The notes under the pieces were generated by a model. That model searched no databases and was not told the DNA's origin. It saw only the letters and a list, made by a program, of their open reading frames with translations. The position numbers were made by a program, and so were the translations under genes. Of a DNA stretch of 64,000 bases, positions 8,298 to 41,329 are shown one piece after another. Each line of letters begins with the position of its first letter. The stretch's first letter is position 1. This DNA comes from an uncultured Acidobacteriota bacterium (GTDB lineage Bacteria; Acidobacteriota; Terriglobia; Terriglobales; Acidobacteriaceae). The stretch lies in assembly GCA_963761465.1 (NCBI GenBank), contig CAVXGX010000001.1:868083-932082 (forward strand). Reading direction: 5' to 3'.

Positions 8298-9020
8298 CTA
8301 CCCTCTCTCAAACGCGTGCTTCTTCTCCAACTCCTTCACTGACTCCGCCCGCGCACTCTCAAATCGCTCGGCCTGACTCATCAAAGCCGGAGTCGCCTCA
8401 GCCCACTCGCCATCCATCCGCAGCAAACCCTGAGCCGCCAGCTTTCCCGCAATCTCCACCAAATGTTCCGGCGTACTCTGCAAATACTGCGCCTCCGTCG
8501 GATCGCCAATCCAAGCCCGAACTGAATCCGGTGCCCCATCCTTCTCGCGTTCTGTGCGAAGGGGTGGGGATTTTGACTCCCCCAGCTTTGTCTCCCAATA
8601 AACTTTCCGCTCCAAGAACTCCGCTATCGCCTCATCGCTCGCCTTGCCAAACACCCACTGCCCCCGCTTGAAGTCATAATGCCGGCTGGAAAACGGCACC
8701 GGCAACAATTTCCCCGATTTCACAAACTCAATCTGCCGCTTGTCCACTTCCTTGCGCAGCGCATTAATCACCGGAGCCTCCACATCTTTCGGCTCCAGCG
8801 ACGCCAACACCTCCCGCACCGTCTGCGAAAGATTCACCGCCACCGGCGCATGCAGCCCGTCCGCACCCTCCAGCCGAATATCCCCATGCAGCACAAAAAA
8901 GTCCGCTCCCGAAGTCGACGGATGAAACGGCCACTCCAGCCCAATCGTGAGCGGCAGCCCCTTTAGCGTGACCCAGATTTTTCTGCTGCCCGTCGCACCG
9001 CCATCGTGCCTCTCAGTCAT
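8298..9020 (-). CDS. Hypothetical protein (carries an in-frame type-A repeat)
   Basis: Start placed at MTERHDGG (9020) to avoid overlapping the upstream kinase gene. Coding-like composition. Residues ...SKSPPLRTEREKDGAP... are encoded by repeat 8531-8577. Confidence 0.55.
   Translation of the reverse strand: MTERHDGGATGSRKIWVTLKGLPLTIGLEWPFHPSTSGADFFVLHGDIRLEGADGLHAPVAVNLSQTVREVLASLEPKDVEAPVINALRKEVDKRQIEFVKSGKLLPVPFSSRHYDFKRGQWVFGKASDEAIAEFLERKVYWETKLGESKSPPLRTEREKDGAPDSVRAWIGDPTEAQYLQSTPEHLVEIAGKLAAQGLLRMDGEWAEATPALMSQAERFESARAESVKELEKKHAFERG
8531..8577 (+). repeat. Type-A hairpin repeat inside a CDS
   Basis: gtgccccatccttctcgcgttctgtgcgaaggggtggggattttgac. Near-identical to 13084-13130. 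Confidence 0.8.
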
Positions 9021-20288: not shown

Positions 20289-21170
20289 ATGAACTCTGCG
20301 CGCATCGCCGAACTACTCGACCCCTTCCTCCGCGCTCCACTCAACCCGTGCCATTCCCAAGGGGCGAACGCCGGTGAGGAATCTGCTGTCTTGTCGCCAG
20401 CTCAACTGGAATATATATCGACATACATCGATATACTAGTCCGCTGGAATTCCCGCATCAACCTCACCGCTATCCGCGACCCCGAAGACATCGTCCCTCG
20501 CCACTTCGGCGAGAGCATCTTCTCCGCGCGCCACCTCTTCCCCGCGGGACTCCCGGGAGGAAGTTCGAATGCACGAGCAGGTGGAAGTCCGGAAGAAGGT
20601 GCAGAAGGAAGCGCGAGCGGCACAGCGAGTGCCACTGCGAGTGGCAATGCCAATGGAAGTCAGAGTGGAAGAGCGGCCCTTCAGGGCCCCGTAAGCAGCC
20701 ATACAAGAGAGGGGGCTTTAGCCCCCGAGGCCGTGGCCAACGACCAACGACTAGCGGCCAACCACGTCCGCGTTGCGGACCTCGGCTCCGGCGCCGGCTT
20801 CCCCGGACTCCCCATCAAACTCTGGGCGCCACACATCTCGCTCACTCTGATCGAATCGAATCACAAAAAGGTAGCCTTCCTCCGCGAAGTCACCCGCGCC
20901 CTTACATTGACCAACGTCGATATACAAAACGCCCGCGCCGAAACCCTGACCGGCATCTTCGACGTAGTCACCCTCCGCGCCGTCGAACGCTTCGAATCCA
21001 TCCTCCCCACCGCCGCCGCCCTGCTTGCCCCCGCCGGTCGCCTCACCCTCCTGATCAGCGCCGCACAACAGGCGCAAGCCCACGAAACCCTCCCGCTCTT
21101 CGCCTGGTCACCGGCCATCCCTATTCCAAATTCCCGCTCACGCATCCTCCTGATCGGCGTTCGACAATAG
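20289..21170 (+). CDS. rsmG: 16S rRNA (guanine527-N7)-methyltransferase RsmG (GidB) with a large internal insertion
   Basis: RsmG pattern: ILVRWNSRINLTAIRDPEDIVPRHFGESI ... VADLGSGAGFPGLPIKL...LIESNHKKVAFL...RAE. About 70 extra low-complexity or repeat-derived residues lie between these blocks. Confidence 0.85.
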   Translation: MNSARIAELLDPFLRAPLNPCHSQGANAGEESAVLSPAQLEYISTYIDILVRWNSRINLTAIRDPEDIVPRHFGESIFSARHLFPAGLPGGSSNARAGGSPEEGAEGSASGTASATASGNANGSQSGRAALQGPVSSHTREGALAPEAVANDQRLAANHVRVADLGSGAGFPGLPIKLWAPHISLTLIESNHKKVAFLREVTRALTLTNVDIQNARAETLTGIFDVVTLRAVERFESILPTAAALLAPAGRLTLLISAAQQAQAHETLPLFAWSPAIPIPNSRSRILLIGVRQ

Positions 21171-21527
21171 TAACTATATAGTTATAAGTGGGATGAAGTA
21201 TATAAATTTCAACACATATCGTTATTAAATAAATCGTTGGTCGTCACCTCTAGACACATAAGTGGGAAACAATAGCGCATATTGGCGATTCTCGACATCG
21301 AAACAGTCCTATCATCTCGGCAAAGCCAAGGCGGGCAGCGGATTAACCTGGCAAGGCTGCCACCTGGGTATCAAGAATATAACAAGTGGAACATAAACCG
21401 AGATTATGTAGTTGTTTTGGCTATCAATAGGCTGTGTTTTTGCTTTCCAACCACAATAAAGTGGAAATACTTCACTGAAAATAACCAATAGGTCGCTCAG
21501 CCGGTTCCCCCAGAAGCGGGAACCGAA

Positions 21528-21549
21528 AAGTGTTCCTGCAGGAACACTT
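21528..21549. promoter_or_regulatory. parS-like 22-bp palindrome, copy 1 (perfect)
   Basis: aagtgttcctgcaggaacactt. Confidence 0.55.
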
Positions 21550-21646
21550 CTCGCAGTTTGCAACATCAAACCGGTTAGGCAGGGCTGCGGGTTCGGGCTA
21601 AATTATGTGGCAATTATAGATGCGCGATCATCTCTGATAAGTCTCA

Positions 21647-21668
21647 CAGTGTTCCTTCAGGAACACTT
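21647..21668. promoter_or_regulatory. parS-like palindrome, copy 2 (centre TTCA)
   Basis: cagtgttccttcaggaacactt. Confidence 0.55.
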
Positions 21669-21766
21669 CCTCTTTCCTAGCATCTAGGCGCCGCATCCCC
21701 GGATTAGGAATTCTCAACCAAGCCCAGACCGAGCAAGCGATCCGCACTCCCAGGCCAGCGCCCGCC

Positions 21767-21788
21767 GAGTGTTCCCGCAGGAACACTT
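21767..21788. promoter_or_regulatory. parS-like palindrome, copy 3 (centre CGCA)
   Basis: gagtgttcccgcaggaacactt. Confidence 0.55.
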
Positions 21789-21905
21789 TGTGGCTTTTCA
21801 ATCGGACGATGGCCTGAAGTCTCCCGGAGTCAACCTCACAGCTCAACCACCACGTCAGCCCAAGGCGAACTGCCTATAAGCCCTTAGGACAACTAGGAGC
21901 CAGCC

Positions 21906-21927
21906 AAGTGTTCCTGCGGGAACACTT
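21906..21927. promoter_or_regulatory. parS-like palindrome, copy 4 (centre TGCG)
   Basis: aagtgttcctgcgggaacactt. Confidence 0.55.
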
Positions 21928-21980
21928 CTCCGAAATTGGCATGCAGCTGAACCAGCCTTGCCGGTCACGCTAAACCGCAA

Positions 21981-22002
21981 AAGTGTTCCTGCAGGAACAC
22001 TT
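21981..22002. promoter_or_regulatory. parS-like palindrome, copy 5 (perfect)
   Basis: aagtgttcctgcaggaacactt, 108 nt upstream of the parA ATG. Confidence 0.55.
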
Positions 22003-22109
22003 GACTGGTTTTGCACAACAATTCACCAGCGTGCACAGCAGATCGTCATTGATTTGAAGTGCGTTGCGGATTATGCTGCGCTGTAGCTCTGCTTCTCCAA
22101 GACAATCTC

Positions 22110-22952
22110 ATGGGACGTGTCATCGCTGTTGCCAACCAGAAGGGCGGCGTGGGTAAGACCACGACCGCCATCAACCTGGCCGCGTCGTTCGCGGCTGCGG
22201 AAGTGAACACGCTGCTGGTCGACTGCGATCCGCAGTCGAATGCCACTAGCGGCCTCGGTTTCGCTAAGGATCCTGACCGGATCAGCTCCTACCACCTGCT
22301 GATGGGAGCGGCCACGGCTGAGGAGGCGCTGCTCACCACTGAACTCGAGCAGCTGTGGCTGATTCCTGCGCACAAGAACCTGATCGGCGCGAACATTGAG
22401 CTGGTTGATGCAGAGGGTCGCGAGTTCCGCATGCGCGAGGCGCTGGCCCAGGTACGCGATCGCTTTCAGTTCATCGTGCTGGACTGTCCGCCAGCGCTTG
22501 ACCTGCTGACGCTGAACTCACTCGTCGCGGCTGACGCGGTGCTCATCCCGATGCAGGGCGAGTACTTTGCGCTTGAAGGTGTGAGCGAGTTACTCGACAC
22601 GATCGAGCGCATTCGCGCGGCGTTGAATCCTGGGTTGGAGATTGAGGGCGTGGTGCTGACCATGTTCGACGAGCGCACCAACCTGGCGCAGCAGGTGATG
22701 ACTGAGCTCAAGAATTATTTTGGGGAGAAGCTGTGCCGCACCACGATCCCGCGGAACATACGGTTGGCTGAGGCGCCCAGCCATGGGATGGCGGCGCTGG
22801 TATACGATCCGCGGTCGAAGGGTGCGGAGAGTTATATCAGGCTGGCGAAGGAGATTATTGAGCGGCAAGTATCAGTGGCCAGTGATCAGGGGAGAGGGGT
22901 CAGTGAGCCCACTTCGGAGCCGGACTCAGGGGAGATGGACAAGACGGCTTAG
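22110..22952 (+). CDS. parA: Chromosome partitioning ATPase ParA (Soj)
   Basis: MGRVIAVANQKGGVGKTTTAINLAA deviant Walker A, DCDPQ, LDCPP. ATG at 22110. Confidence 0.95.
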   Translation: MGRVIAVANQKGGVGKTTTAINLAASFAAAEVNTLLVDCDPQSNATSGLGFAKDPDRISSYHLLMGAATAEEALLTTELEQLWLIPAHKNLIGANIELVDAEGREFRMREALAQVRDRFQFIVLDCPPALDLLTLNSLVAADAVLIPMQGEYFALEGVSELLDTIERIRAALNPGLEIEGVVLTMFDERTNLAQQVMTELKNYFGEKLCRTTIPRNIRLAEAPSHGMAALVYDPRSKGAESYIRLAKEIIERQVSVASDQGRGVSEPTSEPDSGEMDKTA

Positions 22953-23024: not shown

Positions 23025-24167
23025 ATGACTAATACTGCGGAGAAGGTGGAGAAGCGGCGGGCTTTGGGGCGGGGATTGGATTCGTTGTTGCCGGGGCCGC
23101 GGGTGGTTGCGGCGGTTCCTCCGCCGGTTCCTGCACCGATCGTCATTCAGGCGGTGGTGGATGATGGCGTGGAGGAAATCGAGCCGGAATCCCGTTCCGT
23201 GGTTGATCGCGTGGCTCACTCGTCTGAGGTGGGCCCACCCTTCGCAAAGGACGCGAAGGATGGGGCACCCATTTCCGGTTTGGCGGCGGAAGAAACCGAG
23301 ACGATTACGATTTTTGCGCAGGCGGAGTCGCGGATTCCGGGGAATCTGGTGGCGAATCTCGACATTGCCGACATTGATAAGAATCCGTTTCAGACTCGCT
23401 ACGTGGATGACGATGATGCGCTGGAGGAGTTGGCGGATTCGATCAAGGCCAATGGGGTGGTGCAGCCGATCATGGTGCGTCCGGGGGAAGAGGACGGGCG
23501 CTACATCTTAGTATTGGGCGAGCGGCGGCTGCTGGCTTCGAAGAAGGCGGGGAAGACGACGATTCCGGCGATGGTGCGGCGGTTGTCGCTGCAGCAGGCG
23601 GCAGAGTTGACGATTATCGAAAACCTGCAACGGGAGAATTTGAGTGCGCTCGAACAGGCGGAAGCGTTTCGCGTGTTGAGCAGTAAATTCCAGATGACGC
23701 AGCAGGAGATTGGCGAGCGGGTGGGATTGTCGCGGACGTCGGTGGCGAATTATATGCGGCTTCTGAAATTGCCGCGCGACGTGATGCAACTGCTGGCCGA
23801 GAAAAAGATTTCGTTTGCCGAGGCGAAGGAATTGTTGACCCTGGCGAACGACGATCAGATCTCGAAGGCAGCGATCTACATGGTGAAGAAGGGGCTCACG
23901 CTCGAGCAGATTGAACGCCTGGTGTTGTCGATGAACGGGGATCTGGATCCGTTTCCGGGGATGCCGGGGGAAGTGGTGAAAAAGGCGAGCGGGGCGCGGT
24001 GGGTGGATCCGAATGTGAAGGCGGCGCAGACTGATTTGGAGCGGATGTTGGGGGTGAGGGTGAGGATTCGCGACCGGAAGGGTAAGGGGAAGATTGTGAT
24101 TGAGTATCACACGGTGGATGATTATGACCGGGTGGTGGAGATGCTGAGGGGGAAGGGCAGCGCTTAG
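23025..24167 (+). CDS. parB: Chromosome partitioning protein ParB (Spo0J) with extended N-terminal linker
   Basis: RALGRGLDSLL; ParB box VQPIMVRP...YILVLGERRLLASKKAG; HTH QQEIGERVGLSRTSVANYMRLLKLP. Confidence 0.95.
   Translation: MTNTAEKVEKRRALGRGLDSLLPGPRVVAAVPPPVPAPIVIQAVVDDGVEEIEPESRSVVDRVAHSSEVGPPFAKDAKDGAPISGLAAEETETITIFAQAESRIPGNLVANLDIADIDKNPFQTRYVDDDDALEELADSIKANGVVQPIMVRPGEEDGRYILVLGERRLLASKKAGKTTIPAMVRRLSLQQAAELTIIENLQRENLSALEQAEAFRVLSSKFQMTQQEIGERVGLSRTSVANYMRLLKLPRDVMQLLAEKKISFAEAKELLTLANDDQISKAAIYMVKKGLTLEQIERLVLSMNGDLDPFPGMPGEVVKKASGARWVDPNVKAAQTDLERMLGVRVRIRDRKGKGKIVIEYHTVDDYDRVVEMLRGKGSA
23231..23268 (-). repeat. Type-A hairpin repeat (reverse orientation), in frame within the parB N-terminal linker
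   Basis: gggcccacccttcgcaaaggacgcgaaggatggggcac aligns with the reverse complement of the type-A consensus. It encodes ...EVGPPFAKDAKDGAPI... Confidence 0.7.
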
Positions 24168-39466: not shown

Positions 39467-41329
39467 TCACTTCTCTTTCTTCCTGGCGCGCTTGGCCTGC
39501 ATTTCGCGCATTTCTTGACCGAGGGAAGTCCGGTTCATGATGGCTTGCTGCGCCATCTGGATTAAGTTCGATTCGGCGTAGTACAGGTTCAGGCCGGCGG
39601 GCAGCCGGAAGAAGAAGAAGCCCATCATGAGCGGCATCATGAGGGTCATCATTTTCTGCTGCGACGCGTCGACGCCGGGTTGCGGAGTCATGCGCGACAC
39701 GATCAGCATGCTGCCCACCATGATGATCGGCAGAATGTAGGGAAACGGCTCCGAGCCTGACAAGTCGTGAATCCACAGCCAGTGGGCGTGGCGCAGGTCG
39801 AGCGCGATCCTGAGCATCTGGTAGTAGGCATACAGAAATGGCAACTGGATCAGCATGGGCAGGCAGCCGCCGGCGGGATTGACGCCTTCTTTTTTGTAGA
39901 GAGCGCTGATCTCCTCGTTCATGGGCGCCTTGCGGGGATCGCGCAGGCTGTATTTTTTGTATCTCTCCTGAATCGCCTTGATTTGCGGGGCGACGCGCTG
40001 CATCTTCAGCATCGATTTCATCTGGGTGATGCGCAGGGGCAGCAGCAGCAGCGTGAGAATCAGGGTCTGCAGAACAATGGCCCAGCCCCAGTTGGCGACG
40101 ACGTGATGGTACATCCATTTCAGCCAGAGGAAGAGGGGCTTGGCGATGATGCCGAAGAAGCCGAAATCGACCAGGCCGTTGAGATCGTTGTCTGCGCCGG
40201 AAACGCCGGGGACCGAAACTTTCTGCAGGACTTCGAGTTCTTTGGGGCCGGCGAAGATGCGTTCGGCGGTGGGGCCGGCGAGGCTGCCGACGGCAGCGCC
40301 CAGAACGACGACTTCCGACATTTCTGTGGATTCAGGCTTTTGCGGATCGCGCTTCACCGACAGCGGATTGCGCAGCGTGACCATGGACGCGGACTTGGGA
40401 TCGTCGGGGATGAAGACCGCGGCGAAATATTGATCAGTGGGTCCGGCCCAGTGGAAGGGGCCCGAGACGGTGTTGCCGTTAGCGATCGCCGTGCACTTGG
40501 ACATGAACGAGAAAAACCCGCAGCTCAAGGGCAGGCGCTCAATGTTTTTGTTGAACTGGTAGTCAATGAATCCGGCGGCGTAGAAGGCGGGCGTATTCTG
40601 GCTGCCGAATCCGGAAGGCCAGGCCGGCAGCGCTTCGACTTCGCTGCCTTTGTAAGTGACGTTGGTCTTGATGGCGACGACGTAGGTGTTATCGAACGTG
40701 AAGGTCTTGCTGACGGAGAGATCCTGGTCGGCGTATTCGAAGGTGAGGGTGGTGGGGGCTTTAATGGTTTGCCCTGCGAGTTCACCTTTCGCAGAGGTGA
40801 CGGTGACCTTCGGAGTCTCCTCGCCCATCAGGATGCTTTCCTTGTTGCTCACAACGTAGAGAGCGGAGGTGAGTTGGTCGCGCAGGGCTTCGTCGTAGGT
40901 CCAGAGCGAGAGCGGGTAGCCGTATTTTGGCGCCGCATCGGGATTAACCAGGTCGAGCGGGCCGTTCTGGGCTTCGTTGTCGAATTTTTTCAGGATCCAG
41001 GATTTCACCTGCGCGCCGCGGTTGGTGAAGGTGATGCGGTAGAGATCGTTTTCAATTACGGTCTCGGTTTCGCTGGCGGCTTGTTTGGTTACTGCGGAGG
41101 CGGCGGGCTTGGCGACTGCGGGGGCAGGAGCCAGGACTGGAGCTGCCGCGGTCGCGGGCTGTGATTGCGCGGGCTGAGGCTGCTGCTGGGCCGGCGGCGC
41201 GACCGGTTGCGGAAAATATTTCTTGAGCAACGGCTGGAACGCCAGCATCACGATGAAGGCCAGCAGGAAAACCAGCATCAGCCGCTTTTCGTTGCCGGGT
41301 TCGTGTTGTGGATTTTGAATGTCTGGCAA
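39467..41329 (-). CDS. yidC: Membrane protein insertase YidC
   Basis: Long periplasmic domain plus the conserved C-terminal 5-TM core (..PLFLWLKWMY..WGWAIVLQTLILTLLLLPL..Q.KSMLKMQ...P.GGCLPMLIQLPF). Confidence 0.95.
   Translation of the reverse strand: MPDIQNPQHEPGNEKRLMLVFLLAFIVMLAFQPLLKKYFPQPVAPPAQQQPQPAQSQPATAAAPVLAPAPAVAKPAASAVTKQAASETETVIENDLYRITFTNRGAQVKSWILKKFDNEAQNGPLDLVNPDAAPKYGYPLSLWTYDEALRDQLTSALYVVSNKESILMGEETPKVTVTSAKGELAGQTIKAPTTLTFEYADQDLSVSKTFTFDNTYVVAIKTNVTYKGSEVEALPAWPSGFGSQNTPAFYAAGFIDYQFNKNIERLPLSCGFFSFMSKCTAIANGNTVSGPFHWAGPTDQYFAAVFIPDDPKSASMVTLRNPLSVKRDPQKPESTEMSEVVVLGAAVGSLAGPTAERIFAGPKELEVLQKVSVPGVSGADNDLNGLVDFGFFGIIAKPLFLWLKWMYHHVVANWGWAIVLQTLILTLLLLPLRITQMKSMLKMQRVAPQIKAIQERYKKYSLRDPRKAPMNEEISALYKKEGVNPAGGCLPMLIQLPFLYAYYQMLRIALDLRHAHWLWIHDLSGSEPFPYILPIIMVGSMLIVSRMTPQPGVDASQQKMMTLMMPLMMGFFFFRLPAGLNLYYAESNLIQMAQQAIMNRTSLGQEMREMQAKRARKKEK

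Follow-up and report, generated by a model that had tools for sequence, protein, structure and literature searches.

A parS-like palindrome array with a non-canonical centre upstream of parAB in an uncultured acidobacterium

Chromosomal parS is among the most conserved cis-elements of bacteria, and genome annotation as well as studies of ParB generally assume the sequence TGTTNCACGTGAAACA. In a 64-kb window from the genome of an uncultured Acidobacteriota bacterium (the window being the whole stretch analysed in this study, positions 868,083 to 932,082 of contig CAVXGX010000001.1, assembly GCA_963761465.1), five palindromes that share the arms of parS and differ from it in the centre are found directly upstream of the partition genes parA and parB. 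Judging from sequence comparison, these five palindromes most likely constitute the ParB loading site, i.e., the chromosomal parS of this lineage itself, with TGCA or, more loosely, T-N-N-A in place of the ACGT at its centre.

Canonical chromosomal parS sites, such as TGTTCCACGTGGAACA of Pseudomonas and TGTTCCACGTGGAACG of Myxococcus, follow the consensus TGTTNCACGTGAAACA (PMC7022226). Similar to canonical parS, the sites of the window are 16-bp palindromes with the arms TGTTCC and GGAACA and with a G at position 1. Their array is also origin-proximal and clustered beside parAB, with a ParB of the chromosomal type encoded next to it. Different from canonical parS, however, the centre of the window sites reads TGCA (T-N-N-A) instead of ACGT, and half-site positions 6 and 7 therefore differ. 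Moreover, the primary cluster is confined to ~0.5 kb of one non-coding gap directly upstream of parA, in the region in which the guanine-cytosine (GC) skew switches, and is not found within or downstream of parB.

Another natural departure from parS is that of Noc, a protein of Firmicutes whose site is ATTTCCCGGGAAAT. Similar to the switch from ParB to Noc, a ParB-family protein and its site would here have left parS through changes of the inner half-site, and apparent intermediates, in which the arms are kept and the centre is unconstrained, are found in four related loci (L085–L088). In addition, the clade of relatives described below always has Lys or Arg at residue 184, which in Noc is the position of the "permissive" lysine. 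The site of parS and that of Noc are told apart by two bases, one of them at position 6 (PMC7383237). Different from Noc, the change here would have occurred without gene duplication, in the primary ParB itself. The Noc site with its A1 and C6 goes with Q173, K179, K184 and R201, whereas the window combines G1 and T6 with R173, Y179, K184 and A201, and residue 201 is Ala, Ser or Gly in the clade, not Arg.

Replicon-specific parS sites occur in Burkholderia. In Deinococcus radiodurans, the repeat arrays cisII/cisMP upstream of parAB are reported to have DnaA boxes and a role in origin function (PMC7671480); such arrays can serve at the same time as origin or operator. Similar to these parS sites of secondary replicons and plasmids, the window array lies directly upstream of parAB, and its sequence departs from that of the universal parS. 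Different from them, it is on the main chromosome, as indicated by the rsmG-parA-parB synteny and by dnaA 22 kb away, and the ParB encoded beside it is orthologous to canonical chromosomal ParBs. Furthermore, the window repeats are palindromes that would derive from canonical parS, and they are not direct repeats. As for a link with replication initiation, work by Mera and colleagues from 2014 is said to describe DnaA binding at the Caulobacter centromere, and crosstalk of ParA and ParB with DnaA has reportedly been reviewed. Similar to the Caulobacter centromere, DnaA boxes adjoin the sites of the window type, which suggests a coupling of initiation with segregation. Different from Caulobacter, the spacing between box and site is fixed here at 1 or 9–10 bp, both for the first and the last site of an array and for many sites that occur singly. 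We know of no other system with such a fixed geometry of DnaA box and parS site. A literature search returned no paper with the exact 16-mer or under the term "non-canonical parS" and nothing specific on parS in Acidobacteria.

The palindrome array upstream of parA

An exact search of the window for GTGTTCC-N4-GGAACAC (GTGTTCCNNNNGGAACAC) returned exactly five matches. They start at 21530, 21649, 21769, 21908 and 21983, with start-to-start distances of 119, 120, 139 and 75 bp, and their centres are, in order, TGCA, TTCA, CGCA, TGCG and TGCA. The copies, spacings and centres listed in the initial annotation were thereby reproduced. No further match was found elsewhere in the window with up to two mismatches allowed. 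In dinucleotide-preserving shuffles, the mean number of matches was 0.17, and five matches were reached in none of 100. All five copies have identical arms, TGTTCC/GGAACA. The first and the fifth copies are perfect 22-bp palindromes (AAGTGTTCCTGCAGGAACACTT), as had been noted from the sequence. It had also been stated that the variant copies differ in the centre alone, which holds for the 18-mer; in the 22-mer, the outermost base of copies 2 and 3 differs as well (CAGTG... and GAGTG...). In agreement with the gene coordinates, all five sites fall between rsmG and parA, in a non-coding gap of 939 bp (Table 1). Just before site 1, at 21497-21518, lies an imperfect inverted repeat, GGTTCCC-cagaagc-GGGAACC, whose arms resemble the site arms and whose spacer is longer; it could be the remnant of a site or a hairpin.

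The window ParB has its nearest homologues among proteins annotated as Acidobacteriota, Acidobacteriaceae or Candidatus Sulfotelmatobacter. The relatives compared in this study comprise 80 species-level loci, whose ParBs are 57–83% identical to that of the window and each of which includes ±10 kb of flanking sequence; counts of arrays are based on the 76 loci with enough upstream sequence. TGTTCC-N4-GGAACA was found in all 76, with 2 to 7 copies (median 4) within ~800 bp upstream of parA, which answers the earlier suggestion to look for the motif upstream of parAB in related genomes. The spacing between the sites of these arrays ranged from 25 to 307 bp, and their total span from 100 to 620 bp. 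The distance from the start of the last site to the codon for the Walker-A lysine of ParA was near-constant (152–159 bp in the 76 relatives). Beyond the arrays, three sites were found in 1.43 Mb of the relatives' flanks, which equals the chance expectation. In two loci, a large gene has been inserted between parA and parB, which are ~4–5 kb apart (L043 and L075, the latter with an open reading frame of 1189 amino acid residues), and the array is still upstream of parA.

A sequence logo of 320 sites from the 80 relatives reads A-R-TGTTCC-TGCA-GGAACA-Y-T. The 12 arm bases are near-invariant, with 98.4–100% per position, and the bases of the centre are T in 85%, G in 74%, C in 79% and A in 89% of the sites. 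The information content falls off outside ~20 bp, and the base that borders the 16-mer alternates symmetrically by genome, being either G...C or A...T. The conserved block has the width and register of the 16-bp parS. The description of the inner 16-mer as one that has the outer arms of parS and TGCA in place of ACGT, made originally for the window, is thus borne out by the same arms and the same 16-bp register across the clade.

Canonical parS itself is missing from this part of the chromosome. Its best match in the window has three mismatches, which is the level of chance, so that the earlier remark that no canonical parS is seen in the window stands. In 1.56 Mb of origin-proximal sequence of the clade, one match was found at up to two mismatches. 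The arms, the origin-proximal location, the cognate ParB of chromosomal type and the positional orthology described below support the identity of the sites as parS; the central CACGTG core is absent.

Table 1. Coordinates of the array and of neighbouring features in the 64-kb window
Feature	Position	Strand	Basis or remark
Putative parS-variant site 1, AAGTGTTCCTGCAGGAACACTT, centre TGCA, perfect 22-bp palindrome	21528..21549	.	motif search
Putative parS-variant site 2, CAGTGTTCCTTCAGGAACACTT, centre TTCA	21647..21668	.	motif search
Putative parS-variant site 3, GAGTGTTCCCGCAGGAACACTT, centre CGCA	21767..21788	.	motif search
Putative parS-variant site 4, AAGTGTTCCTGCGGGAACACTT, centre TGCG	21906..21927	.	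motif search
Putative parS-variant site 5, promoter-proximal, centre TGCA, perfect palindrome	21981..22002	.	motif search
DnaA-box consensus TTTTGCACA (TTWTNCACA)	22009..22017	+	9 bp after site 5
Putative parA promoter, TTGATT (22049-22054), 17 nt, TATGCT (22072-22077)	22049..22077	+	inferred from sequence and conservation
AT-rich stretch in the upstream part of the gap, A+T as high as 77% in 40-bp windows	21171..21480	+	composition scan
rsmG (gidB), upstream neighbour	20289..21170	+	protein profile annotation
parA, Walker-type partition ATPase	22110..22952	+	protein profile annotation
parB, 380 aa, presumed binder of the sites	23025..24167	+	protein profile annotation
yidC	39467-41329		
dnaA	44275-45390		22 kb from the gap; no skew change there

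Canonical parS of sister lineages and the ParB protein

A full-library search showed that the ParBs around the clade split into sequence groups by the helix after the helix-turn-helix (HTH) motif. In three Terriglobales loci (L082–L084), whose ParB cores are ~51% identical, three aaGTGTTCCACGTGGAACACtt sites are located in the rsmG–parA gap; these are canonical TGTTCCACGTGGAACA sites with AAG/CTT flanks as in the window copies. Canonical or near-canonical TGTTCCACGTGGAACA arrays were also found in the same gap of L209–L211, the loci of two closer ParBs that are ~66% identical in the core. In the four loci of another ParB group (L085–L088), the arms are kept and the centres are neither palindromic nor conserved (GACT, CATC, GTAC, CGTC and others). 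One of these four (L085) carries six sites head-to-tail at 8680-8825 with a period of 26 bp (TGTTCCGACTGGAACA plus a 10-bp spacer), which shows that arrays can expand via local duplication.

The proximal site and the ~110-bp promoter region that follows it align base for base among genomes with TGCA, ACGT and GACT centres, and the four central bases alone are exchanged. From the proximal site to the start codon of parA, the aligned segment reads TGTTCC-xxxx-GGAACA-TTGGACGCG-TTTTGCACA ... ATTATGCTG ... AGCTCTG ... GACAATC..ATG. Judged by these flanks, site 5 of the window is orthologous to the canonical parS of the sister lineages. In a neighbour-joining tree of ParB cores, ACGT is the state of the outgroup and the basal state, and the TGCA-centred loci form a single derived clade, at the base of which L075 is placed with the centres CGCG, CGCA, TGCA and TGCG. 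Because of the orthology of the flanks, the ParB tree and the absence of canonical parS otherwise, the palindromes are read as parS with a changed centre. The proposal that they are a lineage-specific centromere variant serving as the ParB loading array, put forward with the initial annotation, is therefore supported by the conservation of the array, its register, the canonical parS of the sister lineages and the clade-wide absence of canonical sites. The array is best filed as parS-like in its presumed function and as a likely descendant of parS, yet one that fails the consensus at the centre.

By analogy with characterised ParABS systems, ParB dimers would bind each palindrome via their HTH domains. 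Bound ParB would then close into clamps dependent on cytidine triphosphate (CTP), slide off the sites and accumulate, so that one partition complex would form on a platform of ~475 bp at the replication origin. ParA would segregate this partition complex, and SMC would probably be loaded there. The array probably also feeds back on the expression of parAB and probably couples ParB to DnaA and replication initiation. Such feedback and coupling are plausible because the putative parA promoter follows the proximal site at a fixed distance and a conserved DnaA box lies beside that site.

A different reading, which we consider quite improbable, is that the palindromes are operators of another dimeric regulator, such as one of the MarR, Crp/Fnr or LacI type, which would control parAB together with a small regulon, while ParB would use another site or none. 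The 6-N4-6 geometry is indeed one that sites of dimeric regulators typically have, the distance between the proximal site and parA is fixed, a MarR-family gene is found ~8 kb upstream in three loci, and the single sites near rnhB, polA, PPK2, a Ser/Thr kinase gene and an SDR gene could be read as members of a regulon. However, the orthologous sites of the sister lineages are canonical parS, the established target of ParB, with alignable flanks. Another protein would thus have had to appropriate the orthologues of ParB sites, and no alternative parS is found near parAB in the 1.56 Mb of clade sequence. Moreover, the variable number, spacing and span of the sites are unlike those of an operator, several single sites are just past stop codons and not in promoters, and no regulator gene is consistently adjacent to the array. 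The reading of the array as the parS of this lineage is thus preferred. The ParB encoded beside it was compared with ParB and Noc proteins of known specificity.

The window ParB comprises, in order, a ParA-interaction peptide, RRALGRGLDSLL, a linker of ~100 amino acid residues, and the Pfam domains ParB_N, HTH_ParB and ParB_C. The linker between RRALGRGLDSLL and ParB_N (region of residues 1–105, 23025-23340) is rich in Pro, Ala and Val. The polypeptide length of the relatives' ParBs ranged from 380 to 470 amino acid residues, compared with ~280–300 for model ParBs. The window ParB passes the ParB model TIGR00180 (167.8 bits; cut-off 58.45) and fails the Noc model TIGR04285 (181 bits; cut-off 315). 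Its core is 36–41% identical to those of solved ParBs, to which it was aligned; residue numbering and the contact map are those of Caulobacter ParB (Jalal et al., PMC7383237).

Residues Q162, G170, S172, R173 and N178 are retained. R173 reads the G at position 1 of the site (PMC7383237), and this G is also retained in the window sites. The departures include a clade-invariant change of K171 to Leu, Tyr at 179, Lys or Arg at 184 and Lys instead of Gly at 196. In the clade, residues 200–205 read F-[A/S/G]-[E/Q/K]-A-[K/R]-E instead of M/S-G-H-A/G-R/K. Overall, the clade-invariant substitutions at or near DNA-contact positions are L171, K196, those at 201–205 and Y221. Residue 201 lies against base pair 6 (PMC7383237), and base 6 is T in the window sites, A in parS and C in the Noc site. 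On these alignments, the ParB of the clade has clearly changed at its DNA interface. The comparison of specificity residues suggested with the initial annotation thus revealed changes at or near contact positions.

Two candidate associations were tried and rejected. In the first loci examined, ACGT centres were accompanied by H202, degenerate centres by D202 and TGCA centres by E/Q/K202; the idea that His202 determines the ACGT centre was refuted by ParBs with E202 (P0454 and P0504; L209–L211) that adjoin canonical parS. Likewise, covariation of the flanking base pair (G...C versus A...T) with ParB residues 201–204 by lineage gave no clean association. In four loci whose ParB has Gly201 (F-G-E-A-K; L014, L016, L017 and L021), the centres TATA, CATA or TGTA are favoured over TGCA, which hints at a finer covariation of site and protein in this sub-lineage of few independent genomes. 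In addition, the arginine patch GERRxRA (residues ~163–169) reads GERRLLA in the window, and its last Arg is replaced by His in ~70% of the clade; sister acidobacterial clades and reference ParBs keep this Arg. In model ParBs, residues of this class are connected with spreading and with the function of CTP.

The probable origin setting of the array

The GC skew is about −0.2 to −0.4 on the left of the rsmG–parA gap and about +0.2 to +0.4 on its right. The sign flips within ~21.1–22.3 kb, and the cumulative minimum is at ~22.0–22.3 kb. The same flip is found at the rsmG–parA gap of 66 of 68 relatives. It is not due to gene orientation, because the genes on the left are on the + strand and yet the skew there is negative. 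The replication origin appears to be located at parAB, not beside dnaA, and the putative centromere array would thus lie within, or directly next to, the replication origin oriC.

Perfect DnaA-box 9-mers (TTWTNCACA) occur 1.6 times per gap, compared with 0.017 times per control kb, an enrichment of ~100-fold. Their geometry relative to the sites is fixed. One box is followed after 1 bp by a site, typically the first of the array, and another box follows the last site after 9 or 10 bp. The 9-mers beside the sites read TTTTCCACA or TTTTGCACA. A perfect box was found within 30 bp of 36–46% of the sites, versus 0.8% expected. As the same geometry is also found in L209 with its ACGT centres, it predates the switch of the centre. 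The sequence GTTTTGCACA at the DnaA box after the last site is present in all 76 relatives. In the gap of the window, the classical box TTATCCACA is absent with up to one mismatch allowed, and the looser TTWTNCACA is found once, beside site 5. The palindrome arms themselves were considered as DnaA boxes and rejected, since they do not match the asymmetric TTWTNCACA and the true boxes lie beside the sites.

A putative sigma-70-like promoter of parA, weak yet conserved, lies ~90 bp downstream of the proximal site, and its −10-like sequence TTATGCTG is kept in 49–63 of the 76 relatives. A scan with the sigma-70 consensus found no convincing parA promoter and did not list this one (TTGATT-17-TATGCT), which has 8 of 12 matches. 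The AT-rich upstream part of the gap contains four AAGTGG(G/A)A boxes on the same strand, at 21186-21193, 21260-21267, 21384-21391 and 21459-21466. These 8-mers are found in 46–52 of the 76 relatives, and AAGTGG is also found in the gaps of sister clades. This AT-rich part with its boxes is a possible lineage-specific initiator or origin-unwinding element.

Given this setting, the palindromes could instead be elements of oriC, either as sites of an origin-regulating or initiator-associated protein or as a cruciform aid to unwinding, and not a centromere. The switch of the GC skew within the gap, the enriched DnaA boxes with their fixed offsets (box-N1-site and site-N9/10-box) and the AT-rich stretch with AAGTGGRA boxes would all fit such a role, and single-stranded palindromes could form hairpins of 8–9 bp. 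However, the arms do not match the consensus of the DnaA box, and the 12 invariant arm bases, which show no compensatory changes, point to base-specific reading by a protein rather than to structure. The orthology to canonical parS points to ParB as that protein. In addition, a location at oriC is compatible with parS, and a role in oriC is better taken as a layer added to ParB loading than as an alternative to it. As an alternative, it seems very improbable. As a layer on top of the ParB loading role, coupling to oriC and DnaA may well exist, and it is held with less confidence than that role itself.

Single sites and the significance of a non-canonical centre

The JGI metagenome contigs were scanned for the flanked 20-mer ARTGTTCCTGCAGGAACAYT, and 80 loci were taken from the matches listed. 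Among them, 27 are arrays adjacent to parA, 3 are short contigs adjacent to rsmG and 30 are too short to be placed; two low-GC loci among the listed matches that are not beside parA or are too short resemble chance matches. Single copies recur at certain positions. In six listed loci the site is ~35 bp after the stop codon of rnhB, and in another six it is between PPK2 and an MBL-rhodanese gene. Further positions among the listed matches are after polA, between a Ser/Thr kinase gene and a peptidase gene, and after araA. These singletons are TGCA-centred and often lie right after stop codons and beside a DnaA box or a GTAC-rich motif; a perfect DnaA box is found within 30 bp of ~46% of all sites in the listed metagenome loci. 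In one relative (L045), polA is within 10 kb of parAB, and rnhB, polA and PPK2 are not among the genes of the 64-kb window.

The singletons may be secondary parS sites. Well-studied chromosomal parS sites form one main cluster with a few conserved extra sites, and by this analogy an array with recurrent singletons is a pattern that fits chromosomal parS, unlike that of a REP (repetitive extragenic palindromic) family. The bare 16-mer is also found in viral (phage) contigs, with at least 120 matches of low GC content and random flanks, among which the AR...YT context occurs in 2 of 80. These viral matches are background and can be used as a control for chance. It is barely credible that the palindromes are structural or selfish repeats, i.e., REP-like or MITE-like (miniature inverted-repeat transposable element) hairpins or intrinsic terminators gathered in a long intergenic region: a consensus scan marks three of the copies as terminator-like hairpins, some of the singletons come after a stop codon and carry a T-run, and unrelated phage contigs often contain the bare 16-mer, but all five copies in 64 kb are in one gap, the density outside the arrays is that of chance (1.43 Mb), the arms are invariant and do not covary, five tandem terminators before a promoter make no sense, and the viral matches, with their random flanks and low GC, are background. 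The single match to a known RNA family in Rfam, to mir-503, a eukaryotic microRNA, scored 25.4 bits, well below the gathering score of 54, and was treated as chance.

Several points weigh against the palindromes being the parS of this lineage. The case is comparative throughout, and the binding of ParB to the sites is inferred from sequence. Of the 16 positions, the 4 in the centre depart from the canonical consensus. No ParB residue that explains the switch was identified among the compared loci, and the remaining discriminating columns (106, 133, 167, 171, 196, 205, 208, 221 and 239) are markers of the clade and thus confounded with phylogeny. The GERRL(H/L)A patch suggests that clamp or CTP behaviour may be non-standard. 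Finally, the flanked 20-mer occurs away from parA as single copies in at least 20 of the 80 metagenome loci, a pattern with which a second binder is equally compatible as extra parS sites.

A more comprehensive scenario can be proposed only tentatively, and we regard it as somewhat doubtful as a whole. In this scenario, the primary pair of ParB and parS would have switched its specificity from ACGT to TGCA, while sister lineages would keep the ancestral state and a "centre-blind" intermediate state. The centromere would be built into oriC with DnaA boxes at offsets of 1 bp and 9–10 bp, as a composite element that couples initiation to segregation.

The parS signal is nearly universal in bacteria, and the array of the window is most likely, on the present comparison, one of the rare cases in which it has changed in nature. 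Among soil Acidobacteriota, a large and abundant group seems to rely on another parS centre; searches with the consensus would therefore wrongly score such genomes as lacking parS. The three coexisting states of the centre (ACGT, unconstrained and TGCA), together with their ParBs, would provide a natural series for a change of specificity without gene duplication, which complements the engineered conversion of ParB to Noc. Moreover, the fixed geometry of DnaA boxes and parS-like sites at the skew switch would offer a testable handle on the coupling of replication initiation to chromosome segregation.

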